A DNA stretch of 64,000 nt from a virus (IMGVR_UViG_3300028886_000089:5080-69079); one strand, 5' to 3'. Counted from the first letter of the stretch, positions 4,272-63,905 are shown. Program-made: numbers and translations. Notes: generated by a model not told the origin, from the letters alone.

Positions 4272-7200
4272 CTAAAACTCTACTTCACATTTAAAAATTG
4301 CTTTAGATGCAACATCTTCTGGGCCTATTGTTATACTTTGACCACCAGGCAGCCTTGCCCATGTCTCATCTTTAATTCCATCTTTGTCATATTTAACCCA
4401 AGTAAATTTAGTTACTTGGTCGGTTATTTCATGTTCTGGGTCCATTCCACTACCTTGATATACATGACAAGTTAATGTCGCTCGTACATCTTGACGTACA
4501 AACATATTACCAGTTGAAGAATCAATTATTACAGTAATTGCATCTTCTCCATCTTGTCCAGGGGTTATTGGAATCGGATTCTCATCATCGTCATAACCTT
4601 CATAAATTGTATCTGCATTAATTATTAATCTATATTCGTTGGCTGTTTTATCATAATAATAAGTAATAAAGTTTTTATTGTCTCCTATATACATATTATT
4701 AGTATAAATACCTTGTGTACCTATCATATTATTATATATAGAAGAATTAACATTAATATTACTTTCTATTGGGTCAGGTAAAGTACCTAAAATACCTCTA
4801 TATTTATAACTAACTTTTGGAGATTTGCTTGGATCAATAATAGTCTCAAACAAACTTATTGCACGACGTGGTAAATTAACAGTATTATCTGAACTATTAA
4901 TTCCAATTCCATAATTAGATGAACCATCTTCACGGCCCATATCTACAAGCGCGCCGCCCTCAAGTCCTGCTAATACATCAGCTATTGTTTGATCTTGTTG
5001 AATAACACCATTAATAAATTGTATACCATTCTCTAAAGTAACTTCAGCTGTATTAAGATTTACGTCCAATACTCTATATACATGAATTAATCCATTTGAT
5101 AATAAAATATTATTTACATTTGGTTCTGTTCCATCGGTAGTATAATTACTAATTTTACACCAGCTTTGGAACTCTGTATGCATTTCATAATATTCATTTT
5201 CATGTGGATTACCCACAGGTGTATCAACTATTATATATCCATAATTTCCTTTAATATAATAAGTTTTTGAAATATCTATAGTAGTATCTTCACTTAAAGT
5301 ATAAACTGCTTTAGCAAATAATGCTGGTTTTTCAACCTTTAAAACCAAACTATTACCACTAATTCGTGCAGATTTAATGGTGGAAGATGGTCTAAAAATA
5401 AATATACCACCAACCGCTTGAATTTCTGCATATTCAAATACGGCTGTCTTAATAGCTCCGCGTGCCGTTATATTATTGAAAACAGCATCGCCATCTTTAT
5501 TAATCATCCAACCATATCCAGCCCCGTCCTCGTAATTAGAAGATTTAATTTTGGCGCTTTCACCATCAATAATAATATGTTCTTGTCCCTGACCTGTTGG
5601 ACCTACATTTACTCGTCCTAAAAAATCGCCTTGTAAAGCTGTAATAGTACCACGAACATTTGCATTATTAAAAGTAGCCCCATTATCATCTATGTGCCAA
5701 CCGGTTTGATTTTGTATAGACCAATTACTTGATTCAATGGCTCCTTGCGCGCCAACTGTAATTGTATCAATTACTTCTAACTCACCTAATGTACCAGTTT
5801 GTGCTTCAATATGACCTCGTGCAGTAATTTGATTAAAAGTTGCATTACCATTGGTGTCAGAAATAATAAAAGTTGGATTATTATCTGTCTGAATTGTAGA
5901 ATAAATACCAACTCCGGGCTCAAGTACAATAGTATCCATAGTTAATGAATTATTATTAACTACCATACCACCGATATGACCACTTGTCGCAGTAATATCA
6001 CCTGTTATATGAATATTACCTTGGTCATCAGTTTTCATTACTTCTATACCAGCATTGTTCTTTATACGAATACCATATAATGAAGGTCCTAATTGTTTAA
6101 TATTTTCTGGTATTGTTGCCGGGTCTGTATAAATTGGGTCACCTTCATGCCAATTTTCTTGTTTCCATTCAAGTGCACCAATTTTAATTTTTTCATTTAA
6201 TTGATTATTAATAGTATTTAAAACTCTAAAATCATTATCTGAAGTAATTTCTACTCTACCACCGCCAGGATATGAATTTTTTATAAAAAATCCGTCCCAA
6301 GTAACAGCGAAATGTGCTTTATCTTTAATTTCTTCTAATGTATAAGGTTTTAATGAATTTCCATTTTTTATACCATATAAACCATTTTGGTCATATCGTA
6401 CAAAAGTTTGCAAATCATAAGCACTTATTATATTACCTTCAGCATCAGTCATTGTTCCATCAGATCTATATGCACTAATACCAGCTTGATCCCAACGGAA
6501 ACTCGGACTATCACTATTTCCAATAGTTATTAATTTCGTGCTTAAACTTCCAGTAATTATGGCATCAGCATTAACACCAAAACCATCAATTACATTTTTC
6601 CAGGTATTACCACCATCAGCAGAAACTGAAATTCCCTCATTATTAATTATAACACGATTAGTAGGATTAGTCAAATTCCGTATTAAAATTTCATTACCAT
6701 TAATAGTAATAGAACCATCAGTGGTTAAGGCGTATTTTTGACCGCTAATATTATTTAAAGAATTAAGTAATACATCAGAATTAATCGTGCCATTTGCATC
6801 AAGTAAAGTACTTATTTTGGCATAAGTAGCTTCATTATATTGCACAGTTTGAACTGTTGCGCTAATACGTTGAAACAAATCTTCAAACCGTGTTTTATAA
6901 TTTTGAACAGTAATAACATTATTTTCTGGCTCTTCTAAATGCCATTCAACTTCTGATACTATTACTTCTTCTCGCGCGGGAGTATATATAAACTCAGGAT
7001 TTTCTTCTGTTCCTATATTCTCTTTAGTCCACCCGAAAAATTCAGTATCTTCTACATAAGTTTTATCTCCAGCATCAAATGTATACCATTCAAACCCTTC
7101 AATTTCACTTATTTCAACTACATTAATTGTATATGAAACTGCAGGTTGCGCTGAAGTATTACTAACTTGTAAAGCATCAAGATAATAACGTTCAGAATCT

Positions 7201-10200
7201 ATATAATCTGTTGAATTCCAAGTTCCTTCTTGAATAAAATGACTATATTTATTATTAAATTCTTTGGTAAGCTCATCTTTTTGTTCTCGTAATTCTTCTA
7301 TTTCATCTTCGATACCAAAAGTGGTTTTATCACAAGAAATTTTAATTGTAAAAATTTTATTATCATTAATAGTATATTGCGTTTCATCCGCAGAATAATT
7401 TTGCGGAACACTTTCAATAATAAAATTCGTTTCTTCTGTTTCTATGTCAAAGAATCTCTTAGTAATAGAGGTTGTATATTCATGCGTTCCTACTCTAAAC
7501 TGTATTCCAGGGAAAAATTCGTTTAATTCTACAAAAACGTGTCTTTGTAAATTAACATCTTTACCCGTCCAAATTTTAATTTTATAATTTTCAGAACCTT
7601 TTAATGTATCATGAATAATCCAATATTCTTTATCAACATTACTTAATAAACCACTATAATTATTAATTGTGGCAGATGAAACATAAATTTCTCCTAAGGT
7701 TTTAAGAACATTTTCTTCTTCAGTTAACTTTGATGCATTAATATCTTTAATATATTCAATTACAATATCTGGTTCTAATATAGTACCATATATTGTAAAT
7801 TTTGTCGCACCATTATAACTTAATATAACTTCTTCAGATTCATTAGTTATATTTTTTTCTTCGCCACCAATAAATTCATATTCAGCATTCCAAGCTTGAA
7901 TAGTCACAGTAATGTTTGAATCAACAACAGGAACACCACTTAAAGTAAAAGTTTGATAATCGACTTCACTATCTACTCTATCAAAAATATCTGTTGCATC
8001 GATTCCATCTAAAACTCCGTTATGAATTTCTTGATATTTTTCATAACTAATTCCAGTTAATTCCTCAAACTTCGCAAGTGCATCCATTTGAGTATCTTGT
8101 GCAGTTTCAATTAAAGTGGTATATACATCACGATTACTATTAATTTTAGTTAAAGCTAATTCTAAATTATTACGTTCTGTATTTTTTTCTTTTAAATCTT
8201 TATTTAATTTAGCAAATTTAGTTGAATAAGTTAATCTATCTTTTTCTACTTCTTCTTTATTTAATAATCCTTGATTATAATAATAATCAAAATTTATGAT
8301 ATAAGATTCTCCACTTTGATTAGAAGGAGCATTTGTAATAGAAATATATCCTTCATCAACTAAATCAGATTGAGATTGATCAATTATTAATTTTGTTACA
8401 ATTTCATCAGAATTTATATTACGTTCAATAGATGAAAGATTAACTCCATATTTAAAACCCGCCCAATTTTCTTTCCCAGCATATTCACGTAAATATACAT
8501 ATTTGTTTGGCCGTCCATTGGTTTTTGTAATATATCCTCTATCATCATGATCAACTACTAAATCAATCCAACATTCAAATGTTTCAGCAATTGTTTGAAG
8601 TATATTAAAACAATTAGATTGAGATACACTAATTGATAAATTTTTTTCTGAATTTTCATTATATAAAGGTTTAATTGTAACTGTATTATCATATATATCA
8701 TTAATTAACTCATTTAAATCTGTATAAGTAATAATACTATCAGCTTCATCACCTGTTTCTGGCTTTAAATAATAATATGAAGTTGTTTTCGCTGTCGCGG
8801 TTGGAACATTACCTATTAAGATAGGTTCACCATTTGTATCAACATCTTCTATATAACGAGTTAATTGTATATCTTGTATATAAATTGGATTTGCATTATC
8901 TCTAGCATATAAGAAAATACCAATTTTATATTTTGGGTCCGATAAAGATGCAGTAGATACTCCTTTTATAGCTGTACTAGTTAAATAATAATAAGGTAAA
9001 TATTGTTTATAAGATTCTGCACTACTTTCATTAATTGGAATAAAATCACCAGTTAAATTATCCCAAGTATATTTAATATGAGTTTGACTATCTTCATAAA
9101 TATATTTTGTTGAAGGAGTTTGAACCACTCCATTAATTACATATTCATATTTATTATTTGAATCGTCTTCATCTTCATCTTCAATTGCTTTAAGAATACC
9201 ACCAGTAATATAATTATTTTTAACTTTTGGAGTACCACTAAAATCAAAAATTACATCATTTACATTTATATGTTTATAATAGTTACCAAAACGATTAGCT
9301 TCATCTTTAGTATATTCGGCAACCATTATCCTTAAATTTTGATAAGGTATTAAACAATCTACATCACTAATGCTTTCATCTGACACAGTGGCATCTCGTA
9401 TACCTGCGCGCCATCTGAATACAAATTTATCTCCTTTAGCAATAGACTGTACAGTAGAAGAATTATTTTCAATACCGCTATTATATACAGTATTACAATA
9501 ATGATTGTCTACTGTCGCGCGCGGCCCATTAAATTTAACTTTTAAAAACCCTTCTATTTGTGATAAAGTTGCTATATCTACTAATTTTCTATTGCTACCA
9601 AGTTCTGGTCTGGTAACTAATTCTAACTTATTTACTGGTTTAGGTTTATTATTTTCACCTAAAGATTGGTCTGTATAAGGATTCCAACCTTGTAATGAAC
9701 CATCTTCTAATACATTAAAATTATCCCCATTAGTAATATAATTAGTAACTATATTAGAAGTTGTATACGTATAATCAATATATTCATATACCTCTTGATC
9801 ACTTGGTTGGTTATTTTCATATACTTGATATCTATTAACAGTGCGCCCCATTATTGGGTCATATACATTTAATTGTCCATAAGCTAAACGATTAGCATGA
9901 TATTTTGTCTCAACCTCTTGTATGGTAATGATGATATTATCGTTTGCATCTTTAAAACAATTATTGTCATAAAACAATTCAGTTGTAATTCTAAAATTAG
10001 TATCTGTAATTACTCCTTTATCATCAATTGTATAATTACGATTCTCATCATAAATTATAAATTGTATATTTTTACCATCTTGGTTTTTAACAAAACTATA
10101 AAATAGATATATATTAGTTTGAGTAGTTGGTATTATGTCTTGATTTCCAGAAGCATTTATAATTGTTATCCCTGTTGGATTTAAAATCGCTTTATAAATA

Positions 10201-10733
10201 GGTTCTTCTATAAGCTGTTTAAATATGTCTTTTCCACCAACTAACCAATCAGTATCTTTTAAAGTTTCTTTTGCTAATTGTGTTGCGGTACCTTGATTAT
10301 TATTTAATTCTGAATCAAAAGTAATGTTATAACCTTGTTTAGATAATTCTAATACAAAAGCATCTGTACAAGTATAAGTCCAAGTTAATTCATCGCTAGA
10401 TTCATTATGCTCTTTAACAATAAATTCATACCATTTATTATCATAATATAATTTAACTTTTCGTTCGTTTGTGAGCAATGCCGCGAATGGATTAACAAAA
10501 TCACTATTGCCACTGTATGGATCAAAATATTTATACTTTAAAGAAAAACTAAGTGTTTTTTCTCCATTACTTTTTTTATTAAAAACGGGGTCATAAACTT
10601 TATTTAACCCCGTCATTGTATTTGAGCCGATGACGGCTAATTTTCTTTCTTCAAACCTATATTCGGCTCCGTCTTGGATGAGTTTCTCTTCCCAAACGGA
10701 AATTTCATATGGCTTTATTAAACGCTCACCCAT
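4272..10733 (-). CDS. Large tail tip / host-specificity protein (Tal / prophage tail endopeptidase-like)
   Basis: 2153 aa, follows the Dit-like gene; N-terminal tail-spike-type region, central coiled coil, C-terminal beta-rich region. Confidence 0.7.
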   Translation of the reverse strand: MGERLIKPYEISVWEEKLIQDGAEYRFEERKLAVIGSNTMTGLNKVYDPVFNKKSNGEKTLSFSLKYKYFDPYSGNSDFVNPFAALLTNERKVKLYYDNKWYEFIVKEHNESSDELTWTYTCTDAFVLELSKQGYNITFDSELNNNQGTATQLAKETLKDTDWLVGGKDIFKQLIEEPIYKAILNPTGITIINASGNQDIIPTTQTNIYLFYSFVKNQDGKNIQFIIYDENRNYTIDDKGVITDTNFRITTELFYDNNCFKDANDNIIITIQEVETKYHANRLAYGQLNVYDPIMGRTVNRYQVYENNQPSDQEVYEYIDYTYTTSNIVTNYITNGDNFNVLEDGSLQGWNPYTDQSLGENNKPKPVNKLELVTRPELGSNRKLVDIATLSQIEGFLKVKFNGPRATVDNHYCNTVYNSGIENNSSTVQSIAKGDKFVFRWRAGIRDATVSDESISDVDCLIPYQNLRIMVAEYTKDEANRFGNYYKHINVNDVIFDFSGTPKVKNNYITGGILKAIEDEDEDDSNNKYEYVINGVVQTPSTKYIYEDSQTHIKYTWDNLTGDFIPINESSAESYKQYLPYYYLTSTAIKGVSTASLSDPKYKIGIFLYARDNANPIYIQDIQLTRYIEDVDTNGEPILIGNVPTATAKTTSYYYLKPETGDEADSIITYTDLNELINDIYDNTVTIKPLYNENSEKNLSISVSQSNCFNILQTIAETFECWIDLVVDHDDRGYITKTNGRPNKYVYLREYAGKENWAGFKYGVNLSSIERNINSDEIVTKLIIDQSQSDLVDEGYISITNAPSNQSGESYIINFDYYYNQGLLNKEEVEKDRLTYSTKFAKLNKDLKEKNTERNNLELALTKINSNRDVYTTLIETAQDTQMDALAKFEELTGISYEKYQEIHNGVLDGIDATDIFDRVDSEVDYQTFTLSGVPVVDSNITVTIQAWNAEYEFIGGEEKNITNESEEVILSYNGATKFTIYGTILEPDIVIEYIKDINASKLTEEENVLKTLGEIYVSSATINNYSGLLSNVDKEYWIIHDTLKGSENYKIKIWTGKDVNLQRHVFVELNEFFPGIQFRVGTHEYTTSITKRFFDIETEETNFIIESVPQNYSADETQYTINDNKIFTIKISCDKTTFGIEDEIEELREQKDELTKEFNNKYSHFIQEGTWNSTDYIDSERYYLDALQVSNTSAQPAVSYTINVVEISEIEGFEWYTFDAGDKTYVEDTEFFGWTKENIGTEENPEFIYTPAREEVIVSEVEWHLEEPENNVITVQNYKTRFEDLFQRISATVQTVQYNEATYAKISTLLDANGTINSDVLLNSLNNISGQKYALTTDGSITINGNEILIRNLTNPTNRVIINNEGISVSADGGNTWKNVIDGFGVNADAIITGSLSTKLITIGNSDSPSFRWDQAGISAYRSDGTMTDAEGNIISAYDLQTFVRYDQNGLYGIKNGNSLKPYTLEEIKDKAHFAVTWDGFFIKNSYPGGGRVEITSDNDFRVLNTINNQLNEKIKIGALEWKQENWHEGDPIYTDPATIPENIKQLGPSLYGIRIKNNAGIEVMKTDDQGNIHITGDITATSGHIGGMVVNNNSLTMDTIVLEPGVGIYSTIQTDNNPTFIISDTNGNATFNQITARGHIEAQTGTLGELEVIDTITVGAQGAIESSNWSIQNQTGWHIDDNGATFNNANVRGTITALQGDFLGRVNVGPTGQGQEHIIIDGESAKIKSSNYEDGAGYGWMINKDGDAVFNNITARGAIKTAVFEYAEIQAVGGIFIFRPSSTIKSARISGNSLVLKVEKPALFAKAVYTLSEDTTIDISKTYYIKGNYGYIIVDTPVGNPHENEYYEMHTEFQSWCKISNYTTDGTEPNVNNILLSNGLIHVYRVLDVNLNTAEVTLENGIQFINGVIQQDQTIADVLAGLEGGALVDMGREDGSSNYGIGINSSDNTVNLPRRAISLFETIIDPSKSPKVSYKYRGILGTLPDPIESNINVNSSIYNNMIGTQGIYTNNMYIGDNKNFITYYYDKTANEYRLIINADTIYEGYDDDENPIPITPGQDGEDAITVIIDSSTGNMFVRQDVRATLTCHVYQGSGMDPEHEITDQVTKFTWVKYDKDGIKDETWARLPGGQSITIGPEDVASKAIFKCEVEF

Positions 10734-10742
10734 GTGTGCCTC

Positions 10743-11864: not shown

Positions 11865-11892
11865 TTCCTTTTACTCCTAAATTCTTTTTAAT

Positions 11893-12342
11893 CTACTTCT
11901 TTTCGTAAATTAAAAAATCATGATCTCTCAAACATTCCTTATATACTTCTCTAATTGTAGAGATTGCCAATACAGCCTTATTATTCTCATAATCTTCATG
12001 TGCTGCACAATAATCCTCATAAGTGTCTATATCATCAAGAATTTCATCGAAGTGTTCTTTTGAATGACGCTTATTAAATAAAATTTCATCATTAAATCGA
12101 AGTATACGTTGTCTAGCCTGGCGCGCACGCTCAAGCTCTTCTTCTTTCTTTAAAATATCGACTTCAGCTGTAAGTCGTTTAACTTGTGTTAATACTTCTC
12201 CATTAATAGAACGACCGATTGTTCGGCCTATTAAATTCCATATATTTAGCTCTAGCTTCGGTATCTTAATCATCCCTATAAGGACAACCAATAATCCTAA
12301 TACTCCGCCTTGAGCAAGATGATTGATTTCAAACAAATTCAT
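11893..12342 (-). CDS. Membrane protein, possibly holin-like
   Basis: N-terminal hydrophobic segment GGVLGLLVVLIGMI followed by a charged helical domain; first gene of the late tail operon. Confidence 0.45.
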   Translation of the reverse strand: MNLFEINHLAQGGVLGLLVVLIGMIKIPKLELNIWNLIGRTIGRSINGEVLTQVKRLTAEVDILKKEEELERARQARQRILRFNDEILFNKRHSKEHFDEILDDIDTYEDYCAAHEDYENNKAVLAISTIREVYKECLRDHDFLIYEKK

Positions 12343-12379
12343 TTTCCCCTCCTAATATCCTTATAGGACATTTTCTTTC

Positions 12380-14036: not shown

Positions 14037-14080
14037 AATAATCTTGCGACAGCAAGGCCCGACAGGGTAAGGAGGCAAAA

Positions 14081-20449: not shown

Positions 20450-20500
20450 AGTCCAAATGTGCCATTTCTACTTATATATAGAAGGCAAGGAGGAATAAAA

Positions 20501-56200: not shown

Positions 56201-57553
56201 ACGCTTCGCTGAAGTTTCATTTAACTCCATATTAAAACCACGAAGCGCCGCAGTCATCATGTCGGTAGTTTCTGCATAATCAAGGCCAGCAATACGAGCC
56301 ATCTTCATGGTTTCTGCACCAAGTTCGAAAGCTTGTTGCTGTTCCAAACCCTGTTGATAATACAGAGTCATTGTTTCATAAGCACCTTGAGTAGTAGCTC
56401 CTAATTGATTAGCAACCCTTGTATATTCAGGTAACATACCCCATAAATCACTAACCTTATAATCAGTAACTACTGCAGTTTCTGTCATTGCTTTATCAAG
56501 TTCTTTAACAGATTGAACTGCTTCATCAATTCCCCTCTTTAAAAGGTTTATCATATTTCTTAAACTAAAGAAATATTGAGTTGATTGCTGAAGTTGCTCT
56601 ACCTGTTGCGCTGCAGACATAGATTGTTGAGCGAAGCCGCGCGCAGCCTCAGCGCACTGATCATAGCCTTGCTTTAATTGGTTTGCATCTTGAGCTTGTT
56701 TAGCAAGATTGTTATTATAATTACGTTCACCAATTTTTTCAAGTTCACTCTTTTTATCAACAGCATCACTTAATGATTTAGTTACTTGTTTAAGTTCTGC
56801 GTCGTCAGCTGATAAAACAGTACGTAATTTTTCAAAACCTTGATGTAGTAATGAAACATGTTCTCCACTCTTATATAAATCTTCGGCACTCTTATTAAAT
56901 TGAATAAGCCCCATTTGTTGAAAAGTCTTAAGCAATCCAACGCTTGCACCCTTTAATTTAGTGGCCTGCTGTTCAATTTGAGTTAAACCCTTGGCTGCAT
57001 CAGTAAAATTACCACTTTTAACACTATTCGTCATTTCCTTCATAGAAGCGGATACAGTTTTTGAACTTTTAACTGCACGCTCCATATCGGAAACTAACTC
57101 ATTTAATCCTATATCAACTTTACCTTTTGTAGGACTACTAAACTCAAACTTAATAGAGCCAAGTTTATTTTGTACATCTTGTTTTAACTGGTCTATATCT
57201 TTTTGAGCATTTTTGATAGCTGTAGCATCGGCCTCAAGATATATTTTTTTACCAGAAAGCTCATCATAAACTTTAGATAATTCTGAAAAAGAACTTTTAA
57301 TAGTTTTTTCTAATTTTTCTAACTGTTTTAAATCAGTTTTTGTATTAACCCCTTTTTCCATTAACTCTTTATATTTAGTTAATGAATCTTTCAATTTATC
57401 AAATTGTTTTAAGGCATCACCTGTTAAATTAGCTGGTAATTTTAAACCATTAAAAGCACCCTGCATACTTTTGACGCCATTTAATACGCCACTAACATCC
57501 ATATTGGCAGCTACAGTAACCCCTACAGTTGCTTGACCTCCACCTGGTGCCAT
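47261..57553 (-). CDS. Tail tape measure protein (3430 aa)
   Basis: TMP signature (LDKAMTETAVV..ARIAGLD..TAALRGF..AVTASDT..QRTASIA), long helical composition, C-terminal GGLADYTGPAWLDGTPSKPELVLNA. Confidence 0.92.
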   Translation of the reverse strand: MAPGGGQATVGVTVAANMDVSGVLNGVKSMQGAFNGLKLPANLTGDALKQFDKLKDSLTKYKELMEKGVNTKTDLKQLEKLEKTIKSSFSELSKVYDELSGKKIYLEADATAIKNAQKDIDQLKQDVQNKLGSIKFEFSSPTKGKVDIGLNELVSDMERAVKSSKTVSASMKEMTNSVKSGNFTDAAKGLTQIEQQATKLKGASVGLLKTFQQMGLIQFNKSAEDLYKSGEHVSLLHQGFEKLRTVLSADDAELKQVTKSLSDAVDKKSELEKIGERNYNNNLAKQAQDANQLKQGYDQCAEAARGFAQQSMSAAQQVEQLQQSTQYFFSLRNMINLLKRGIDEAVQSVKELDKAMTETAVVTDYKVSDLWGMLPEYTRVANQLGATTQGAYETMTLYYQQGLEQQQAFELGAETMKMARIAGLDYAETTDMMTAALRGFNMELNETSAKRVNDVYSELAAITASDTEELGTAMQRTASIAASAGASFEGTTAFLAQAIETTREPAENIGTAMKTIVARFQEMKKNPLEISEVDGEEVDYNKIDAALKTIGVDLKDTNGQFREFDQVMLDISAKWDTLSQSQQRYIATTAAGSRQQSRFIAMVSNYDRTMQLMEAANNSAGASDEQFGKTMDSLESKLNQLHNAWQQFTMGIANNNMIKLAVDGLTGFLNITNKIIDTLSMGSGAIKSFLSVFAAFTGLKMAGRGANALIGGLGGLVDPKSSVKEGLKVGLFGQGKNANQAKAITTPIVGSLSKISGQIAAIAKRQGIKGAGQKGSTAGVKETSKEDYANTKKLFSQLSGKEGFKMGDTSKLFGNLDAKHQLSMFNNSPGTKLAMKQASLNWFNSKGLSKELTNEGRQFINSIYKGMSQGQIPVDKGIELIGQPQKWGQYFGTDMAKGFSSSFARESTQQAHQQAMQYLVGNPDAYGFRSNEFKDWYNNQATDAQKEAYAKYFRQAIDKRQGHGEAKGVVSDMGRFANDIGAIADKFTQAGYGISAFGNALSQLGGPLGVVGNGIAVFGGAISTIGASISGATGIISLFTVGITDATGAVVVAGSTIAAVAAPLAALAAGFLLVRHHIKQVKEAGAEVTETFKETSKTAEDNIAKLKSYQSEFAQLSKGVDSNGYNVSLDDSQYQRYLEIVDDIAAINPEIVEGYNAQGHAIINNNKALAETLKKQQEIRDEAYKTYTEQDSLQKLINARNISSEYRNSIVNPTSSKAEDAGLINNKKTPFAADVRNIADLLGLSVGVKDFDFTKYGIDSLDALKNGEEKAVQNFVKHRQQIETDLSNSGVKLSDAVIKGFDKLGEDSAAFDAAIQPVYDNLLANVSNSKVFESIAPEFRNALNMGLKDLASQDLSGSEMIKAANNMAARFADLTTGSGKYQDALDKVEEAQQEFATTLNETEYKANVEPAIQDLIKLKQEALDEGSAYGDALAEYLENQIQRISNFTKEGGANLTEALNTATDEIAAAEGALDSFNEATKRDYSTAAEGMRSIFDKTTETYKDIYGSEIQKHAEGMGDATFWTGAEALLSGKEIERLTKGKDGYEAAEAVAKKIKGLEPMLREGQDGFDAFTDRVLENADAMDKLAEAGVTYDKESGLITNIPDDQWHNVAEALGISDDLLTSMLNKGRQFADISFMNVEDARKALAASDYSIKGTQAAPGEQQNLYVKEDTLRSELANAGYVRKEQQDEQIAKLLNEGVKTIPADASQLSPKDLDSMAKDWGVSTLPDLIQTLNETGDFTKDEIKNYADQLGLLGSDAQYDDLYSSIIEAAENPELVKQTGVLETISAQVAALADTRTGKEAKEDYDEAHKELVGGKGIDTQAQAFAKGKKLDENGKLVDLSAGEYEQTKASMQEVANSFRETAAIAAEKVKITSGAEQDYWKQVQKGAEADAARTDKYIQMADEAMKKRADAEKQETEGRQKEVEARNKARQTEQDAAEAAAKEANKNAQERGKTQTEREQNKPVTESEGKTARDEGRVKEAQQQRQKELEEANKQRWEAENKRAQAAAAAEKKATEDNLKTQKTLQEQGEIEGQKLKQRYEAEEQARKRKNIEERSQLEGEKLAERARQEQEAQRQAQLASQDQGRAQGRALSAEQTAVQAEDIQGKTDYLLRTSINTSLKTALDNLDPAQIASDPAQSQAFTNLYKDLINGSLPKAEDLQTLGIFGQLDSQYQDQITGALEEKTSILGEKISAAYQAFAQADKAALAMDVVPADDNVSKAITTVGQRLKNWWDKINNVNSEANTSSNIAPTVNTGAQAVANVAKNVAQESQSKFSVDTSESEAKLTNLKTQVDNTVSTIQQGATFKINVNDSGLTNAAKQAESLTKASNNKNINVTASGADGANKLSAAVKDFSKLNNKTINLTAKTSGLSGVQSLTSAVQAFHRLTDKTITLKTIKETVTKEATGAHNHGYFPAPSMGSAARGSYGQLGPKGKGGLTLTGELGYEIAWLPSENRSMILGANGPQMVNLPGDAVVWTHEQSKRILKQKSIPAGSHADMSAKASSYKKKGSTTTTTSGGGNKNTQNKNTDTKKAAKQIEKTFKDIGDKVYKVTVWWENIARSTQDTQRIMDRAAKDFEKYTKDIRATLRKTGESVASGGGGGDDYIKNIKEYQKLNEQQRDRAKLELDALESSGLNKKATKKQRKKEYKKGNVAVEEISYKKGKKSKTDYIDLSKYIKNGQVDEKALKKIKSSAKRKAVAEAASKALNDERSKKQSAEDAIEKAQEALEKFGEELYNTFFAWENELTKIWNITQKIAEAENHINRAKSYTELLDAKVGSGIQKAVDVSQASIDAFSTQVQSQATNLQNNIEALGEERDDLRRTMSLADEKATLTAIQGYLKTNKGPDGRTLNETDRKGYLNWGEKLEKQINTLDDAWKYLTVTQRADGTLDTKFNTASFEADRQAGLINDEKAKAIQDYVKSLVDKSDAINNRMDTITSSTAEFYNELKTLKDEWAGYANQLWEISDAEQKKELDNFKKLSDSLDSAFKNLLDGVKRKLDERRQQEDNTKTERDISQKQQRLAMLQADTSGGHQVEIAQLQQEIANAQQDYQRSLEDQMLDKLQQQADQAAQQREQQIELQSATIDAINNASLVNQWLADPKNPDNKQAMYEAFMAANEADTKPDAIKEQLERQFEELYLGIITNKDKQDALYSSDQAQNQIINQIEDGTIKIANWSGQESGILDSIKAGIDGLNSSGSSVSLSNGGKVTEGGTKAISTPSTSNSAPAPAAKPNPLNAYKAKVQAAQSNKKMGANEFKSVVAHAKAAGISMTQMGKDLAKTKGLTWKQVVKAAKKAGYSKATVTSWWGNVSNKSKNAIKDWSKYATGGLADYTGPAWLDGTPSKPELVLNAKDTQNFLALRDVLSKAIGSTNSINNSYGGDNIFEINVNVDKIEKDYDVDRVIEKVKKEITKGAGYRNVTQVRNFR

Positions 57554-57577
57554 TCTTTTTTCCTCCTAATTTTTTCA

Positions 57578-57610
57578 ATAAAAAATGACGTTAATTAAAA
57601 ATTAACGCCA
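57578..57610 (-). terminator. Intrinsic terminator
   Basis: TGGCGTTAAT-loop-ATTAACGTCA followed by a T tract on -. Confidence 0.65.
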
Positions 57611-58408
57611 TTCGGAATCTCTATCTATATCCTCATCTAAATAATATATCTCTAAGGCTTTTGAAGTTTTACGCCCACCAACAGATAAAGCCGTTCCTTT
57701 AAATTGTCCTACTATTGGCTGCGCATTTTGTCCTAAAGTGAGATTGAAATCTGACGTAATTTTTAATTTCGGAATGTAGATAATTGCAGTATGAGTTTCA
57801 CCAGTTATATCATCTTTAATTCTTGATCTACCCTCTAAAGTTAAAAAACCATCAAAGATTTCTTCACCAATTAACTCAACATCTGCACCATTATCATATC
57901 CATATTCATAATCTACAACAACTTCTTTATAGATTAAGGGAGTTTGTAATATACCTTGAGTTTTATCTACCCAAGTTAAATCTGTCAGCTTCTCACCTGT
58001 TTCTCTATTATAAACAAAAATCCACGAATCTATAGGTACGTGGGTTAATGTAATTTTCCCCTCATCATCGGTCTCAAGTTCGTCTCGTTGCGCTATTCGA
58101 ATTCTTTTTCCCTCGTTTATAGAAAGGACCCGCGCATTATGCATAAGACCTAATTGTGTTTTTGAAAACACACCTTGTGTGAAAATTAAATTTACTCCCT
58201 CAGTCCTGTCCCAAATTACTAATTTCTTATTTTGGTAGCCACCTTGTGCGGCTATTTCTTTATTTATTTCTTGAAAATTAGCAATTTGAATCTTATCAAA
58301 TGCTGCGACCACTTCACCAGCCGCATATTGAACTCCTTTTATCTCTATAGGATAAGTGGATTTTAACTGCACTGAATACAGTTCTTGCATACCGAATTCA
58401 TTATCCAT
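57602..58408 (-). CDS. Tail tube protein paralogue (minor tube)
   Basis: AQGGYQNKKLVIWD..FSKTQLGLM aligns by eye with ARGGKGNVKLLTWD..FSAKSLGIM of 58477-59490. Confidence 0.6.
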   Translation of the reverse strand: MDNEFGMQELYSVQLKSTYPIEIKGVQYAAGEVVAAFDKIQIANFQEINKEIAAQGGYQNKKLVIWDRTEGVNLIFTQGVFSKTQLGLMHNARVLSINEGKRIRIAQRDELETDDEGKITLTHVPIDSWIFVYNRETGEKLTDLTWVDKTQGILQTPLIYKEVVVDYEYGYDNGADVELIGEEIFDGFLTLEGRSRIKDDITGETHTAIIYIPKLKITSDFNLTLGQNAQPIVGQFKGTALSVGGRKTSKALEIYYLDEDIDRDSEWR

Positions 58409-58419
58409 TGAAGTCTCCT

Positions 58420-58453
58420 AAAATAAAATGAGGAGAGACGTTGCCGCCTCTCC
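58420..58453 (-). terminator. Intrinsic terminator after the major tail gene
   Basis: GGAGAGGCG-GCAA-CGTCTCTCC followed by a T-rich tract on -. Confidence 0.8.
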
Positions 58454-58476
58454 ACCATTAAAGTTCGTTTTATTAA

Positions 58477-59490
58477 TTAATTCTCATCAGTAATATTAGC
58501 GCCTTCAGTTAATGAACCACTAGCTGATGTAATAGTTGAAGCATCCCAAGCATCACCAGAAGATACTGCTGCATAAGCTGCACGCTGATTTGGACCATTA
58601 TAATGATCTAATACAGAAGCAACACCTTTATTCTTAATAGCATCACCAGTACCACTCTCACCAAGGCTGTATTTAACAAGTTTAACCATTGAACCATCAT
58701 TAGCTTTTAAGCACTGAACAGTCATAGCAAATTCTGCTGGATCACCATCAGCTTCCATTGTAAGACTTACATCCTCGGCAGAAACCTTACCCTTTGGAAT
58801 AATAAATTGTAAAAATTCATCTTGACCAGACTGGAAGTTTCTAGCATATGTATCGCCAGTAATATAATAAGTGTTTGAATTGAAATTAGAAGTAATATCA
58901 ATTGTAATACCATTTGATACAATACCAGTTGAACCAATACTACCATCTGCAGCAACAGTTACAGCATCAAGTAAATCAAAAGTAACAAAATCCCATGGGT
59001 CTGGAGTACCTTTTGTAGCATTTGCAACAGTTACAGGGGATGGATCAGTTTCGCCTGTAGCATATACAAAATAAGTACATTTAGTTTTATCAATTGCATA
59101 AGTAACGTCTTTAATGCTAAATTTCCAATAATTTGTTGAATTACTACCAGTAGCAGAAGTAACATCACTAAACTTTAAAGTTTTTAATACTTCTTGACCA
59201 CCAACAGAATTATCTTTCATAGTACCACCGAACATGATACCAAGAGATTTAGCACTAAATAAAGCGTCTGTAAGCTCTAATGTAAGTTCTTTATTAGTAT
59301 CCCAAGTAAGTAACTTAACATTACCCTTACCACCTCTAGCATCTACTGTTTCTGAACTCTGGCTCAGTGTAGAAGTCTTCAGAGTATCAAGATAAAGTAC
59401 AGGAGCAGAAGGAGCACCCTTAGAGTCAAGCTCATAGAACATGACGTCAGCGACTTCTTTGATAGCATATTTATCAAGAATAATTGCCAT
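58477..59490 (-). CDS. Major tail tube protein
   Basis: YAIKEVAD..LYLDTLK..DARGGKGN.KL..WD..GKV..DVSLTMEADGDP. Confidence 0.75.
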   Translation of the reverse strand: MAIILDKYAIKEVADVMFYELDSKGAPSAPVLYLDTLKTSTLSQSSETVDARGGKGNVKLLTWDTNKELTLELTDALFSAKSLGIMFGGTMKDNSVGGQEVLKTLKFSDVTSATGSNSTNYWKFSIKDVTYAIDKTKCTYFVYATGETDPSPVTVANATKGTPDPWDFVTFDLLDAVTVAADGSIGSTGIVSNGITIDITSNFNSNTYYITGDTYARNFQSGQDEFLQFIIPKGKVSAEDVSLTMEADGDPAEFAMTVQCLKANDGSMVKLVKYSLGESGTGDAIKNKGVASVLDHYNGPNQRAAYAAVSSGDAWDASTITSASGSLTEGANITDEN

Positions 59491-59503
59491 ATTAAATAGC
59501 CTC

Positions 59504-60268
59504 CTATAATTCTTTTTCGTCTATATTTTTTATCCAATATTTTGGTTTTACTTTTTTACTATCCGCGCCAGCAAGAAGTGCTCGAATATCTATATCATAT
59601 TCTTCCTTCTGCTGCTCCATGGCTATTAACCAATGAACGCACGCATAGCTTATCTCTCCAATATTAAGTGGATTTAATCCAATACCCATACAACAAATTG
59701 CCGTTAACAAAGTTCCAAAAGTTGGCGCATTTTTTTGTTTTTTCTTTTTAAGAATTTCCTCGCTTTGTTTAATTTTCATTTTATAGCGTTTAATACGTGG
59801 ATCTAAATTTTCTTCTTCTGGGTCTGGAGGTTTTTCCATTTCCACACCTACAACCTGTCGTATCATATTTTGAAATTCAAAATAATTTTCTTCTGTTAAA
59901 AGTCTAGGTTCTTCTAAGTCCACATCTGGGTCTAATTCGTCTTCACTTTTACCAATTAGTAACATCTCAATTTCCGGCACAATTGTCACCGGCTCATGTA
60001 TAAATTGATTAAAAGCTTCATGTATTTTTTCTCTCACCTTGTCATCTTGATAATAATTTATTAACAAATATTGAAATGGTGTAGGAACTTGATTAACCCT
60101 TTCATCTTGGAGAAATGCTTTATCTAATTCCTCTTGTGTCATTGTAAATAACGACTGATAAATCCCAAAATCTTTATTTCCAACTACATCATTTACGGTT
60201 GGGGGATATATTTGACATATGCCTTTAAAATCAATTGGAAAACCAAGTAGAATCCTCTCATCAATCAT
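59504..60268 (-). CDS. Tail assembly chaperone-like protein
   Basis: Position; C-terminal ICCMGIGLNPLNIGEISY..DIDIRALLAGA. Confidence 0.5.
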   Translation of the reverse strand: MIDERILLGFPIDFKGICQIYPPTVNDVVGNKDFGIYQSLFTMTQEELDKAFLQDERVNQVPTPFQYLLINYYQDDKVREKIHEAFNQFIHEPVTIVPEIEMLLIGKSEDELDPDVDLEEPRLLTEENYFEFQNMIRQVVGVEMEKPPDPEEENLDPRIKRYKMKIKQSEEILKKKKQKNAPTFGTLLTAICCMGIGLNPLNIGEISYACVHWLIAMEQQKEEYDIDIRALLAGADSKKVKPKYWIKNIDEKEL

Positions 60269-60752
60269 ATGATGTCAAAACGAAAGTTTGTTCATAAGCA
60301 GAAATTTCTTCGGTTAAAAAATTTAAACTGAAATCTCCACCCGTTAACTTTCCTAATCCTTCAATTTTCTTTCCATTTAAAGACTTCTGTACTTCCCCCA
60401 TAATCGCAAAAGGTCTTAGATTTGTGTCTTTAATTATCCATTGAGTCATTGGAACAAATACTTCAATACTAATATTTACATTTTTAAACTCATTATTTGA
60501 TGCCAACCCACGCGCCCGCGCGATACGAACAGCAATAATTGAGTGAGCAGTTTCTTTTGGACCGACACGCGGCACAATTTTAACTAATTTTTCAAATATC
60601 TCATCTTGTATTTGTTCTTGAGTCAAATCATCATGACTCAATGGGTCTTTATCTGTATAATACAGTAATTTAAGTAAATTCTGATTAGCTAGAAGTCTTT
60701 TTACTATATATTGTGCATTTATACCAATATCAGTACAATTTCTTACGTTCAT
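60261..60752 (-). CDS. Tail terminator/completion protein (putative)
   Basis: Position in the neck module. Confidence 0.5.
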   Translation of the reverse strand: MNVRNCTDIGINAQYIVKRLLANQNLLKLLYYTDKDPLSHDDLTQEQIQDEIFEKLVKIVPRVGPKETAHSIIAVRIARARGLASNNEFKNVNISIEVFVPMTQWIIKDTNLRPFAIMGEVQKSLNGKKIEGLGKLTGGDFSLNFLTEEISAYEQTFVLTSYD

Positions 60753-61477
60753 GCTTCACCTCCTCGATTCAGCCAATAGAAATCATCAGCGTTATCATCA
60801 TCATCTTGAACCGGAGGCTCACTATTATCTCTTATATATTGTGGATCTACTGATACAAATTCAACTCCAGGAGTTGATTGTATATCATAGCCCGTCACTA
60901 CATAAGCTTCTGTAAGTTTGCCTTGAGTGACTTCTAAATAATCGTCCTTTCTTATGTTTTCATTTAGTGGTATAATAAAGAAACTCAATTTCAGATTTTC
61001 TGTATATAAAACCTTACTTCTACTTCTTGACTTTAATTCATCTTTCAACATATTGTCTTCCTGACCATAGAAATATGCCCAAGTACTACATTTCTTACCT
61101 TGTCTATTCTTCCAAGTAAGATAATGAGTCATTTTCAAAACAATATATCTATTATAACCACTTGCTTTTATATCTTCTAAATAATAAATAAGCCAAGGAC
61201 ATAAAATATTATCTTTATCTGGGATAAATAATATAGTTCCATTCGGCATATCTAAATGAACATCAGTTAATAGATAGTGCATCGTCTTCGTTTCATTCTG
61301 CCGCATTGGTGTAAGTTCACCTTCGCGCATCACGCCTTCATACTCAAACTCTACATAATAAACCGACTTCATCAATTGCCGTCTAAAATTTTCTTCCCTT
61401 TGTCCTTGTATACGAGATTGCCAGTCTACTCCGTAATGATTTAACCTCTTTAAATACACATCCTCATAGTATCCCAT
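60749..61477 (-). CDS. Head-tail joining / stopper protein (putative)
   Basis: Position in the neck module. Confidence 0.5.
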   Translation of the reverse strand: MGYYEDVYLKRLNHYGVDWQSRIQGQREENFRRQLMKSVYYVEFEYEGVMREGELTPMRQNETKTMHYLLTDVHLDMPNGTILFIPDKDNILCPWLIYYLEDIKASGYNRYIVLKMTHYLTWKNRQGKKCSTWAYFYGQEDNMLKDELKSRSRSKVLYTENLKLSFFIIPLNENIRKDDYLEVTQGKLTEAYVVTGYDIQSTPGVEFVSVDPQYIRDNSEPPVQDDDDNADDFYWLNRGGEA

Positions 61478-61751
61478 CTTCTACCTCCCCATATTTAGAA
61501 AGTAAAGACATACAATCAAAAATTGTACTTCTAAAATACTCATACCGTAAATATCTTAAAGAGGAAACCTTATGAAATAAAGTGTAATAGTTAATAGTTC
61601 GTTCTTCAGGTTCAAAACCATATAACTCAATTAAAATTGAATCCAAGAACTTCTCCCATTCCCTTCCTTTCTCGTATTCACAAAGTAATCCGAATAGCTT
61701 ATTCTTCAAACTATTCGCATACCCTTCATCCATACCAGGAATATATTTCAT
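61464..61751 (-). CDS. Hypothetical neck-region protein
   Basis: Likely start ATG 61751 directly after the previous stop (track start 61820). Confidence 0.55.
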   Translation of the reverse strand: MKYIPGMDEGYANSLKNKLFGLLCEYEKGREWEKFLDSILIELYGFEPEERTINYYTLFHKVSSLRYLRYEYFRSTIFDCMSLLSKYGEVEDGIL

Positions 61752-61752
61752 T

Positions 61753-62181
61753 TTAATCTCCCGCCAATTGACTATAAGTAAATGGTCGTCCCTTGCGCGA
61801 GCGATAGTAAATACGCTCAAGCTTTAATGCTTTATATTCCTCTCTTTCAAGTAATTGTTTTAACTTATCTATTAAATTAGCTTGTGAAAAGTCCCTTTCC
61901 ACATACAACGGCTTAACATTTTCCCATGTCATAATTGTACGATTAAGCCATTCGCATTTCATATAGGTTGCAAGGATTTGAATCTCTTCATTACAGATAT
62001 TCTCATCTACAAACATATCGTCCTGGATTTCCAAACTAACTCTAGGAAACTTAAAATAAGGAATTGCCGCATCTAATAAGGTACGCCAATCTTGTTCTCT
62101 TTCTTCATCTGTCCAATTTAACCATTCGTCTTCAAGCATTTTTGATAAAAATGCTTCATATACGTCATAGACTGAAGCCAT
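61753..62181 (-). CDS. Head-tail adaptor (putative)
   Basis: YDVYEAFLSKM..A IPYFKFPR..EIQILA.YM..EW..R pattern; position after the capsid genes. Confidence 0.55.
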   Translation of the reverse strand: MASVYDVYEAFLSKMLEDEWLNWTDEEREQDWRTLLDAAIPYFKFPRVSLEIQDDMFVDENICNEEIQILATYMKCEWLNRTIMTWENVKPLYVERDFSQANLIDKLKQLLEREEYKALKLERIYYRSRKGRPFTYSQLAGD

Positions 62182-62182
62182 T

Positions 62183-62671
62183 TTATTTCTCCTTTACTGT
62201 GGCTTGGTCGTCCCTATTTAACTTAATGGCTTTCGTAATATCAACATCTACATATTGCTGAATAATTTCGGACTTATCATAATCCATAATCTCATTTGCA
62301 ATAGCATATGCGGCCAGTTCGTTAATTTGTTCAATTGGAAGTTCTTTTACTTTCTGTCTGAACTCTGCTACTGGCATTACCTTAAGATAACGCTTTCTTT
62401 GCTCATCATTTAGTGTAATAATGTTAACTGGTTCCTTCGCATCTTCTGGCTCAAGACCCAGCGCGATTTTAACTTCCATGTCATCAATACCGAGAATACC
62501 GTTTCTGAACATATTCTCTACTCCAGGACTATACATAGCCTCTTCTAATTGTTCAAAAGGGATTACCATAGTTGCACCTTTTCTTTCCCAAACTCTTCTA
62601 AGTCTGATGTCAGGTACAGTCAGTACAACCCTTTGTGAAACTAAACTTACAACCTTTACCTTTTTATCCAT
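62183..62671 (-). CDS. Hypothetical virion protein
   Basis: AAGGAG RBS; follows the capsid gene. Confidence 0.6.
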   Translation of the reverse strand: MDKKVKVVSLVSQRVVLTVPDIRLRRVWERKGATMVIPFEQLEEAMYSPGVENMFRNGILGIDDMEVKIALGLEPEDAKEPVNIITLNDEQRKRYLKVMPVAEFRQKVKELPIEQINELAAYAIANEIMDYDKSEIIQQYVDVDITKAIKLNRDDQATVKEK

Positions 62672-62796
62672 TTTAATACTCCTTTTAACTCCTAAGCCAT
62701 ATGTATTCTGCGGGCGGTCGCCTATGGATAAACATAGACAGCTCTATGTCGTCAACATAGACGGGCGGCCGCAGTATAAATACAACCTCAACATTT

Positions 62797-62835
62797 AAAA
62801 ATAAATATAGGGAGGGGAATGAACCCCTCCCCTAT
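62797..62835 (-). terminator. Intrinsic terminator after the capsid gene
   Basis: ATAGGGGAGGGG-TTCATT-CCCCTCCCTAT followed by ATTTATTTTT on -. Confidence 0.8.
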
Positions 62836-62843
62836 CTAACTCA

Positions 62844-63905
62844 TTATACGTTCGGATACATCTCCTTATATGTCTGAGTGATTCCTTCATTCTTATAGAT
62901 AGCCCAATTGTGATAAGCAAGAATAGCTGTACCAATCTTTCTATAAGTATGAATTTCCATGGACTGGTCTGCATTGACGAAATCCCACATCTGAGTATTT
63001 CCTTCAAATACAACCTTAACAACTCTTTCACCACCTGTAGGCAGTACGTAAGCAAGTTGTGGGTCAATCCATGTCTCTACATTGTTCTCATCAACAAATG
63101 ACTGTGGAATCTGAACAATCGGAGTTCCTCTAAAGATGTTAATATATCCTTGGTTATGGATAGCATCGATATCCTGTGGGTGATATACGCCACCGTAATT
63201 GCCATTAGCAGCAACTGGAACGATAGCATCAGCGCCCATAGCAGCAACGAATTCAGGCGGTGCAAAGATAACAGCGCCAGAACCATATGCTCTAACTGTC
63301 GAAATCAGTTTCATCATTTCCTGGCCATCAAAGTCATTACCAACTGTTACGTTAGCTCTATTGTTAGCCGGAACACCCTGCTGACTTACAGCCGCGCGCA
63401 GTGCTCTTTGAACCTCTTGATATACAGCATCTGTCTGAGCCTCTGTAAGAAGCTGAACGAGTTCTGCCATATTCTCAGCACCATCAAGCATTCTCTCGAA
63501 GTCAATGCTGCAAGCTCCACCGATTGCATGACCGCTCAGTTCAAAGTAGCCATGGTCAAGTCTGAAGCTTTCATATACGCCCGAAAGACCAACCTGAGTA
63601 AGGAACTTTCTTGCTCTTGTTCTTCCAAGCTTTGTTTTGAAGAGAGCTTTCTGGCCCTGTGGAACTTGCTGAACTTCAGCAAAAATACCTACAGCGTCGA
63701 TAACTTTCTTAGGAACTACTTCATCAGCAGCCTCAATTATAATTTCATAAATGTCATATCTGTTCTTCATGAACTGATTAACGGAACCAGCTAATTCTCT
63801 GAGTCCTTCGCGAAGAGCATCATCTACGTTTTCAACAGAGAAGTTAGTTGGAGCCTGACCCTTAGCTGCATAAACAGCTAATTCTTTCATTTCTTTAATA
63901 GTCAT
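62844..63905 (-). CDS. Major capsid protein
   Basis: 353 aa, highly-expressed codon bias, GGGAGG RBS, strong terminator, head-module position. Confidence 0.7.
   Translation of the reverse strand: MTIKEMKELAVYAAKGQAPTNFSVENVDDALREGLRELAGSVNQFMKNRYDIYEIIIEAADEVVPKKVIDAVGIFAEVQQVPQGQKALFKTKLGRTRARKFLTQVGLSGVYESFRLDHGYFELSGHAIGGACSIDFERMLDGAENMAELVQLLTEAQTDAVYQEVQRALRAAVSQQGVPANNRANVTVGNDFDGQEMMKLISTVRAYGSGAVIFAPPEFVAAMGADAIVPVAANGNYGGVYHPQDIDAIHNQGYINIFRGTPIVQIPQSFVDENNVETWIDPQLAYVLPTGGERVVKVVFEGNTQMWDFVNADQSMEIHTYRKIGTAILAYHNWAIYKNEGITQTYKEMYPNV

Follow-up and report, generated by a model that had tools for sequence, protein, structure and literature searches.

Uninterrupted G/C runs in many spellings, palindromic or not, are in excess in an AT-rich phage clade

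Why should an AT-rich phage genome be rich in words made of nothing but G and C? The question is raised by IMGVR_UViG_3300028886_000089:5080-69079, a stretch of 64,000 bases with a GC content of 34.4% (the window, meaning throughout the whole stretch analysed), which forms the final part of a 69,079-base virus record that is 59% complete by CheckV. An original prediction, made from this stretch alone, held that all-GC palindromes are in strong excess and that a sequence-specific repair or conversion process, or a protein-binding signal, shapes the genome. Here we show that the unit of the bias is the uninterrupted G/C run, in many spellings, and that the preference for such runs is cooperative, DNA-level, strand-symmetric, word-independent, clade-specific and at steady state. 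Throughout, S stands for G or C and W for A or T.

The G/C-run excess is confirmed as real and strong. The octamer positions first listed are all exact, with five copies of GCGGCCGC (33742, 39086, 40579, 42679 and 62765), three of CGCGCGCG (9516, 26195 and 31051) and two of GGCGCGCC (13640 and 31258). GCGCGC (22) and CGGCCG (13) occur in the window as often as first counted, and the excess of CGCGCG stands with its count corrected from about 24 to 27. The accompanying composition estimates were right (1.7 per hexamer and 0.05 per octamer at 34.4% GC), CCCGGG and GGGCCC are without excess as reported (0 each in the window), the codon-level examples in NrdD, FNT and RecJ were verified in the sequence, and all three large intergenic spacers do carry S-runs.

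1-64000, both strands: G/C-run excess in all gene modules, with 91 runs of at least 7 bases (32 expected from an S/W Markov chain) and 47 of at least 8, about 1.4 per kb

As the main control, we generated 300 within-gene synonymous shuffles, in which each protein and each gene's codon usage are kept. The excess persists in these protein-preserving shuffles, in line with the claim that the bias lies in the DNA and is realised by synonymous choices: S-runs of at least 7 bases number 85 in coding sequence versus 30 expected (z-score (z) 11), and in the window's genes the observed counts and shuffle means are 21 versus 3.6 for GCGCGC (z 9), 26 versus 3.5 for CGCGCG (z 11), 9 versus 1.9 for CGGCCG (z 5), 159 versus 82 for GCGC (z 9) and 128 versus 67 for CGCG (z 9), with GGCC and CCGG matching expectation. 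Confining the shuffles to blocks of 30-150 codons leaves the excess in place (z 7.5-10.8). S-runs of 3-5 bases are slightly depleted in the window. The run excess ratio is 2.5 in the tail module, 2.0 in the replication module and 1.7 in the virion module, despite a two-fold difference in G+C at third codon positions (GC3). Foreign GC-rich patches or GC3 heterogeneity were rejected as a source, since these module ratios are alike and the GC3 autocorrelation within the window, only 0.03-0.07, is too weak.

Palindromy, which had been taken as the key variable, did not hold up as such. In the window, the non-palindromes GCGGCC (33), CGCGGC (28), CCGCGC (27) and CGCGCC (27) each stand against an expectation of 3.3. 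In a pooled clade set of about 1.5 Mb, consisting of 71 related loci and the window's genome (G000, the window plus 5 kb upstream), the palindromes CGCGCG, GCGCGC and CGGCCG are each 5.5-fold over codon shuffles, and non-palindromes are equally high, at 5.5-fold for CGCGCC, 5.0-fold for GCGGCC and 4.6-fold for CCGCGC. With the number of CC/GG steps held equal, enrichment is much the same, at 3.26-fold for palindromic and 2.79-fold for non-palindromic G/C-only hexamers. The proposed Markov check likewise yielded no special status for the palindromes, as an order-4 model reproduces the palindromic hexamer counts. The octamers follow from their own 7-mers (GCGGCCGC, 5 versus 6.2; CGCGCGCG, 3 versus 2.9; GGCGCGCC, 2 versus 1.9), and the commonest G/C-only octamers are the non-palindromic CGGCCGCC (9) and CGCGCGGC (8).

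Whether all S-only hexamers are equally enriched, a question raised with the original prediction, has a mixed answer: non-palindromes are enriched too, but enrichment in the clade drops with the number of CC/GG steps, through 5.6, 3.8, 2.9, 1.3, 0.5 and 0.2. Alternating spellings dominate because CC/GG steps are disfavoured. Ranked against shuffles from the 71 loci alone (1.43 Mb), the top five tetramers are GCGC (2.13), CGCG (1.85), CGGC (1.50), CGCC (1.42) and CCGC (1.40), and all remaining tetramers are at or below 1.16. Individual lineages of the clade purge GCGC, CGCG, GGCC or CCGG. Two loci (L002 and L030) have almost no GCGC or CGCG, yet show a 3.3-4.2-fold run excess spelled CGGCGG/GCCGCC (CGG/GCC words), and a third (L053) is without GGCC and spells its runs with CGCGCG. 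That the run excess is kept without GCGC or CGCG argues against a sequence-specific methylase, Vsr-type repair or a binding site. Of the process first proposed, the word-specific part falls away, and the more general idea that some repair, conversion or selective process shapes this genome stands. The usual avoidance of palindromes by phages also holds in the same genome: GATC, CTAG, GTAC, TCGA, ACGT and CATG are all avoided, the last five at 0.56-0.81 of expectation. GATC is avoided more than any other tetramer, at 0.19 of what composition and 0.23-0.24 of what codon shuffles predict, and its avoidance is clade-wide.

The preference grows with the length of the run, lengths of 2-5 being slightly depleted. 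In the clade, the ratio of observed to expected runs is 0.83 at length 4, 1.32 at 6, 2.1 at 7, 2.9 at 8, 4.3 at 9 and 6.9 at 10, which corresponds to an approximately 1.45-fold further enrichment per added base from length 6 to 10; as hexamer patterns against shuffles, SSSSSS is at 2.75-fold and WSSSSW at 0.83-fold. Four-fold degenerate sites in the window show the same behaviour, with a G+C fraction of 0.34 where two S bases stand on each side and 0.18-0.22 otherwise. In the 19 close genome pairs described below, sorted by the number of contiguous flanking S bases, the S fraction at four-fold sites is 0.19 (0-3), 0.28 (4), 0.32 (5), 0.51 (6-7) and 0.64 (at least 8).

Coding runs are distributed over codon phases 0, 1 and 2 as 31, 26 and 28, words and their reverse complements are enriched alike, and G/C-rich words show no polarity on the genome strand. 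In clade intergenic DNA there are 105 runs versus 35.9 expected (1.36 per kb), an excess and a density equal to those in genes; for only 16 of these runs is there a complementary partner close by. Equal phases, strand symmetry and intergenic parity together indicate that the bias acts on duplex DNA, not on translation or RNA. Within the window, the runs are Poisson-spaced, neither paired nor clustered. Genic runs always encode Ala, Arg, Gly or Pro, and stretches of at least four such residues are enriched 1.42-fold in the clade (z 11), as against 0.63-0.65-fold in phage SPbeta and bacterial controls, so that the bias reaches protein sequence. W-runs are unaffected in the clade, and slippage growth of dinucleotide repeats was rejected, as ATATAT, ACACAC and the like are not enriched there. 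A Chi-like polar motif was rejected on the lack of strand polarity among G/C-rich words, CGCAG excepted. CGCAG is the only GC-rich word with strong polarity (63 versus 21 between the strands of the window's genome, p 5e-6).

How widely is the trait shared? Searching IMG/VR with DnaE returned 80 loci at 40-67% identity from many different metagenome samples, and the 70 loci of at least 10 kb were scored. Nearly all of these have S-runs at 2-6-fold and GCGC at 2-6-fold, and the window, at 2.8-fold, is average. In SPbeta, the nearest cultured DnaE relative (38.6% identity), runs are at 0.5-fold. Staphylococcus phage K, Enterococcus phage phiEF24C, Lactococcus phage 949, Listeria phage A511 and T4 contain 0, 0, 0, 0 and 1 GCGCGC, respectively, and no CGCGCG, and five cultured large Bacillota siphoviruses that share the DnaB-type helicase contain 0-3 of each word. 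Over the 1.15 Mb of these ten cultured phages, GCGCGC occurs 7 times and CGCGCG 6 times, as against 22 and 27 in the 64-kb window; expressed as densities, 344 and 422 per Mb in the window compare with about 6 per Mb, so that the two words are about 60 times denser here than in cultured phages whose GC is low to moderate. Of the run sites that the encoded proteins permit, 12.9% are realised in the window and 17% in the clade, versus 2.0-2.1% in SPbeta and bacterial metagenome-assembled genomes (MAGs).

Four MAGs contain related contigs, two of them rumen MAGs labelled 'Bacilli bacterium' and the other two Bacteroidales; they are candidates and not assigned hosts. The suggestion that the host shares the bias found no support in these candidate lineages, as chromosomal DNA of all four MAGs is at 0-0.7-fold. 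In the order of one of the Bacilli MAGs (61 genomes searched), low-GC members have 0-40 CGCGCG per genome, and the genomes with hundreds of CGCGCG have 45-54% GC and a run ratio of 1.0-1.2. Within this sample, the bias was rejected both as something common to AT-rich genomes and as a trait of the candidate hosts. A literature search found no described equivalent.

The dynamics of the runs were followed in 19 independent close pairs, namely the window with G005 (IMGVR_UViG_3300031867_000009), a complete 135-kb relative that shares about 30 kb with it at 86-95% DNA identity, and 18 others. In codons that begin with SS, the four-fold site has an S fraction of 0.41 when the context is SS_SS and 0.20 when it is SS_WW. 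S-to-W exchange was inferred at 0.21 per S site in SS_SS and 0.34 in SS_WW, and W-to-S exchange at 0.148 and 0.085 per W site, respectively; with longer flanks, exchange falls from 0.34 to 0.14 per S site and rises from 0.05-0.08 to 0.24 per W site. Transitions make up about 80% of S/W differences in every context. Among 912 observations of a run against its partner, the partner was identical in 56%, had lost the run to 1-3 W substitutions in 40%, had an altered run in 3% and had a gap in 1.4%, a conservation approximately that of any 8-mer at 92% identity. The 19 pairwise alignments contain no G/C-rich insertions of at least 6 nucleotides with at least 80% GC. The net W-to-S gain looked for in the original prediction did not appear, with 47 gains and 48 losses in SS_SS context after polarisation by outgroups; outside S contexts, gains exceed losses about two-fold, a figure that we distrust, since in AT-rich DNA distant outgroups tilt parsimony toward such a result. 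Gains that about equal losses, together with the lack of positional conservation, point to a steady-state flux rather than to conserved sites. Recombination anchors at mosaic junctions were rejected, as such junctions show no association with runs.

Which gene products could leave such a pattern? C5 methyltransferases (PF00145) and Vsr (PF03852) had no match in the window's genome or in the complete relative G005, in searches that detected the controls, and UDG-family and HhH-GPD glycosylases were not found in two complete and two partial clade genomes. A Vsr-like identity was rejected for the open reading frames (ORFs) at 12438-12845 and 20459-21256, which instead match phage homing-endonuclease PHROGs. 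The window does encode two DNA methyltransferases, along with several homing endonucleases:

31846-32631, + strand: Dam/D12-class methyltransferase gene, with Dam-family relatives
32711-33457, + strand: N6_N4 beta-class methyltransferase gene, with CcrM, DpnA, RsrI and MboIIA as best relatives

Judged by their relatives, both enzymes look adenine-specific, and N4-cytosine enzymes match the beta-class methyltransferase 10 orders of magnitude more weakly than adenine enzymes do. As G/C-only words contain no adenine, these methyltransferases are unlikely to act on the runs. The avoidance of GATC coexists with the Dam-family gene. Additionally, the DnaE of G005 is only 45% identical in protein to that of the window, in flanks that are 89-95% identical in DNA (window 22944-47583; dnaE 34794-38705), and the trait is present in both genomes. 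Being present in both despite the swapped DnaE, the trait does not follow the polymerase allele. Relative to G005, the replicative polymerase has been replaced as a cassette.

What, then, holds the runs at this level? We tentatively favour weak selection, or conversion bias acting as selection, on local duplex stability, with a probability of roughly 0.4. Its target would be the duplex stability of short 'GC clamps' within AT-rich DNA, which would be read by something common to the phage clade, and no sequence-specific methylase, repair enzyme or binding protein would be required. The scaled strength would be selection-like, at about 1-2 per site; the observed odds ratios are 2.8 for the SS_SS context and 7.8 for at least 8 flanking S bases. 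We favour selection on duplex stability because the effect is independent of spelling, because it still grows with run length past any known mutational context, and because the trait is absent from other AT-rich genomes with the same chemistry. It is doubtful that the runs are, beyond this, functional GC clamps, about one per 0.7 kb, selected for number rather than position and read by their stability. If they were, they might serve as stable primer anchors for the phage primase-DnaB-DnaE replisome in 66% AT DNA, or they might label phage DNA as self to a clade-specific helicase-nuclease that degrades host or competitor DNA devoid of clamps. Either variant, if true, would give viruses a degenerate genomic signal of a new kind, coded in composition.

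Several points weigh against selection on duplex stability. No candidate reader of clamps emerged from the genes compared, and no gene of the replication module tracks the strength of the trait. A clade-specific mini-UvrD is present in six trait-positive clade genomes and was not found in the weak-trait genome G068 (82% complete) or in five cultured relatives; G069 carries it, yet reaches only 1.5-1.7-fold outside the DnaE region, and the mini-UvrD/GIY-YIG cassette has no clear link to the trait. Within the clade itself, the most distant locus, the outlying L066, is without excess, and G068 is weak (1.4-fold genome-wide; 1.3-1.5-fold at its loci L057 and L074). Realised sites in the clade follow the spacing of randomly drawn potential sites, apart from a marginal shortage of very short and of very long gaps (z -2.6 and -2.2), and with this near-random spacing selection on run density is at most a possibility. 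The 269 internal ends of high-identity blocks are as far from the nearest run as random positions are (z -1.0 to 1.2), with the limit that such ends are only roughly placed and that conversion tracts might fall at any position. Equilibrium substitution data cannot separate selection or conversion from neighbour-dependent mutation bias, and the polarised counts depend on parsimony, which with outgroups this distant leans toward W-to-S changes. Finally, a host-imposed process is possible.

A neutral neighbour-dependent bias of mutation or repair, in which C:G pairs in stable runs are lost more slowly and/or W-to-S errors are fixed more often beside G/C, is possible but on balance improbable. Duplex melting is reportedly linked to deamination as a matter of established chemistry, in work by Fryxell and Zuckerkandl of 2000 and by Fryxell and Moon of 2005, and as cytosine deamination may need transient duplex opening, runs would be self-reinforcing without any function. 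Such a bias would show in this clade through how, or by what, its DNA is replicated or repaired. It would account for a pattern that is DNA-level, strand-symmetric, independent of codon phase and equal in coding and noncoding DNA, for runs that are Poisson-like in spacing, not conserved in position and balanced between gain and loss, for the fall of S-site and rise of W-site exchange with flank length, and for a transition spectrum that is the same in all contexts; the dynamics, in short, fit it as well as they fit selection. However, such chemistry is expected in every AT-rich genome, whereas SPbeta, the ten cultured phages and low-GC bacterial chromosomes are depleted (0-0.5-fold). The trait also persists over very different, even swapped, DnaE alleles, and the genomes searched yielded no glycosylase, Vsr or C5 methylase of the phages' own from which a repair bias could come. 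The context footprint, which spans at least 6 bases and is still rising at 10, exceeds any polymerase or repair context known to us.

Phage oligonucleotide usage commonly follows that of the host, so that the phage might mirror a signature that its host shares or imposes by repair, methylation or defence. The lineage-specific avoidance of GCGC, CGCG, GGCC, CCGG and GATC indicates that host restriction systems do shape clade genomes. A host imprint is nevertheless unlikely as the cause of the runs, given that the four MAGs with related contigs and the low-GC members of the Bacilli order lack the trait, and that the clade is deep (DnaE to about 41% identity), comes from many metagenome samples and probably infects many host species. 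We give still less credit, and very little, to the idea that specific all-GC palindromes (GCGGCCGC, CGCGCG, GCGCGC, CGGCCG) are made or kept by methylation-coupled repair of Vsr or HIP (highly iterated palindrome) type, or as sites of a dimeric protein. The most enriched words do include the palindromes, ACGC/GCGT and AGCG/CGCT, which are one step away from them, belong to the more depleted tetramers, and cyanobacterial HIPs provide a precedent (PMC4390886). ACGC/GCGT at 0.82 and TCGA and ACGT at 0.67-0.71 of clade codon-shuffle expectation are, however, also CpG-in-W contexts or restriction-type palindromes. Non-palindromes equal the palindromes, hexamers and octamers add no signal beyond shorter words, lineages without these words keep their runs, positions are not conserved, neither a C5 methylase nor Vsr was found in the window's genome or in G005, and the window's methylases look adenine-specific. 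A trivial or coding cause, be it amino-acid pairs and codon usage, codon-pair or translation effects, foreign GC-rich patches, mobile GC clusters or hairpin stems, is the least credible of all. It could draw on the restricted residues that genic runs encode, on the GC3 contrast between modules and on the fact that two of the three intergenic run pairs are hairpin stems; against it, the excess survives global and local protein-preserving shuffles, codon phases are equal, GC3 autocorrelation is weak with similar ratios across modules, there are no G/C-rich inserts and the runs are unpaired.

The individual runs illustrate how these words sit in the genome, both within genes, where they are read as ordinary codons, and in the spacers:

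9516-9527, - strand: 12-nucleotide run containing CGCGCGCG, in the 2153-amino-acid tail (tape-measure-size) ORF, sense GGG CCG CGC GCG
13639-13647, + strand: run CGGCGCGCC containing GGCGCGCC, in the GIY-YIG protein gene 12954-14036
15746-15808: intergenic run pair GCGGCCG (15746-15752) and CGCGCGCC (15801-15808), with no fold (z positive on both strands)
26195-26202, + strand: CGCGCGCG, in ORF 26034-26552, ATC GCG CGC GAC
30932-30944, + strand: 13-nucleotide run CGCGCGGGCGCGC, the longest in the window, in recJ, CGC GCG GGC GCG C, Arg-Ala-Gly-Ala
31050-31058, + strand: run CCGCGCGCG containing CGCGCGCG, in recJ, TCC GCG CGC GAG
31258-31265, + strand: GGCGCGCC, in recJ, GTG GCG CGC CTT
33687-33749, + strand: intergenic 30-bp hairpin with GCGGCCG / CGGCCGC as its clamp, -47.1 kcal/mol and z -8.3 as RNA (-29 on the - strand)
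33742-33749: intergenic GCGGCCGC, in the 3' arm of the 33687-33749 hairpin
39085-39096, + strand: 12-nucleotide run GGCGGCCGCGCC containing GCGGCCGC, GGC GGC CGC GCC, Gly-Gly-Arg-Ala, in the 371-amino-acid ORF 38875-39990
40577-40586, + strand: run CGGCGGCCGC containing GCGGCCGC, in nrdD, TTC GGC GGC CGC
42677-42687, + strand: run GCGCGGCCGCG containing GCGGCCGC, in the FNT-family ORF, AGC GCG GCC GCG
62708-62774: imperfect long intergenic hairpin, z about -4
62762-62772: intergenic run CGGGCGGCCGC containing GCGGCCGC, in the 3' arm of the imperfect long hairpin, whose 5' arm is at 62710-62717

Pairing of runs as hairpin stems, rejected as a general explanation, is true of two intergenic spacers only. 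The hairpin at 33687-33749 accounts for the run pair in its spacer, and the hairpins are local features added onto the general excess. In the hairpin at 33687-33749, G-U pairs favour the + strand as RNA; it sits between a 53-amino-acid ORF and the GIY-YIG homing endonuclease gene 33867-34739. The intergenic spacers gave 0 Rfam matches and 0 tRNAs.

The window holds 61 genes by a crude ORF call, with 97.6% of its length coding. Its replication and repair genes include GyrB, GyrA, DnaB at 26880-28451, a 350-amino-acid primase at 28444-29496, RecJ, a YorL-type DnaE, a Sak4-type ATPase, RuvC and a dUTPase fusion, its nucleotide-supply genes are NrdD, the FNT-family ORF and NrdG, and its tail and virion genes are of the Gram-positive siphovirus type. 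GC3 is 0.21-0.34 (mostly 0.28-0.33) in the + strand replication genes at 12400-47250 and 0.13-0.16 in most - strand tail and virion genes at 1-12400 and 47250-64000. The - strand segment at 2-1582 is the N-terminal part of an ORF of about 2,000 amino acids and tail-fibre size, which leaves the window and reaches genome position 680; with ORFs of 3,430 and 2,153 amino acids, it takes up about one third of the record. The GIY-YIG protein and a 357-amino-acid mini-UvrD at 14081-15154 form a two-gene unit at 12954-15154, which six clade genomes possess and five distant cultured relatives lack. The homologue in a relative (G071:C1:81596-82630) has one in-frame TAG, so that stop-codon recoding may occur there.

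Short GC-rich palindromes should be purged from phage genomes, and in cultured AT-rich phages they are all but missing. A deep uncultivated clade does the opposite. If the cause is selection, the runs would amount to an unrecognised viral DNA signal read by stability. If it is mutational, they would be a clean natural case of long-range context dependence that creates compositional micro-structure, and methods based on codon usage, host prediction and k-mer binning would need to allow for the run bias. The realised fraction of protein-permitted run sites provides a simple marker of the clade (13-17% versus 2% in controls).

Among known systems, the closest likeness is to HIP1 (GCGATCGC) and the alternate HIPs of cyanobacteria (Elhai 2015, PMC4390886). 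HIPs are also GC-rich words that lie far over expectation across a lineage, arise through synonymous choices and are replaced by other spellings between lineages, and a repair-type origin has been proposed for them. The excess here is similarly lineage-wide, in nearly all 70 loci, and independent of reading frame. However, each HIP is a single fixed palindromic octamer whose cognate methyltransferase is encoded in the genome, whereas here no single word is favoured and no C5 methyltransferase was found in the window's genome or G005. Very-short-patch repair by Dcm and Vsr is said to shape the frequencies of CCWGG-related words in E. coli, according to work by Bhagwat and McClelland and by Merkl et al., both of 1992. 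Its bias from T:G to C:G could likewise raise G/C in context regardless of frame, but it needs one methylated word and Vsr, whereas here any G/C run is affected and neither PF03852 nor PF00145 is present in the window's genome or G005. Restriction-site avoidance operates here too, on GATC and other sites, but the run excess has the opposite sign and concerns runs, not sites.

The GC clusters of yeast mitochondria are mobile insertions of 30-50 bp, mostly intergenic. They resemble the present runs as short G/C-rich islands scattered in very AT-rich DNA, but the runs described here are 7-13 bp long, lie in frame within genes and turn over by point substitution, with 1.4% at gaps. GC-biased gene conversion and melting-dependent deamination, reportedly described by Lassalle et al. 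in 2015 and by Fryxell and Zuckerkandl in 2000, respectively, would both produce a frame-independent, strand-symmetric S/W shift that resembles weak selection, and the deamination model also predicts cooperativity with local G/C content. These processes differ in acting on a scale of tens to thousands of bases, whereas the effect here takes the form of runs of 7-13 bp, for which no link to junctions was seen, and is absent from other AT-rich genomes; to our knowledge, neither conversion nor deamination feedback is known to yield runs of this size. What the present analysis contributes is the run as the unit, its length cooperativity, its steady-state balance, its reach into protein sequence and its parity in intergenic DNA, together with the negative controls provided by cultured phages and candidate hosts.

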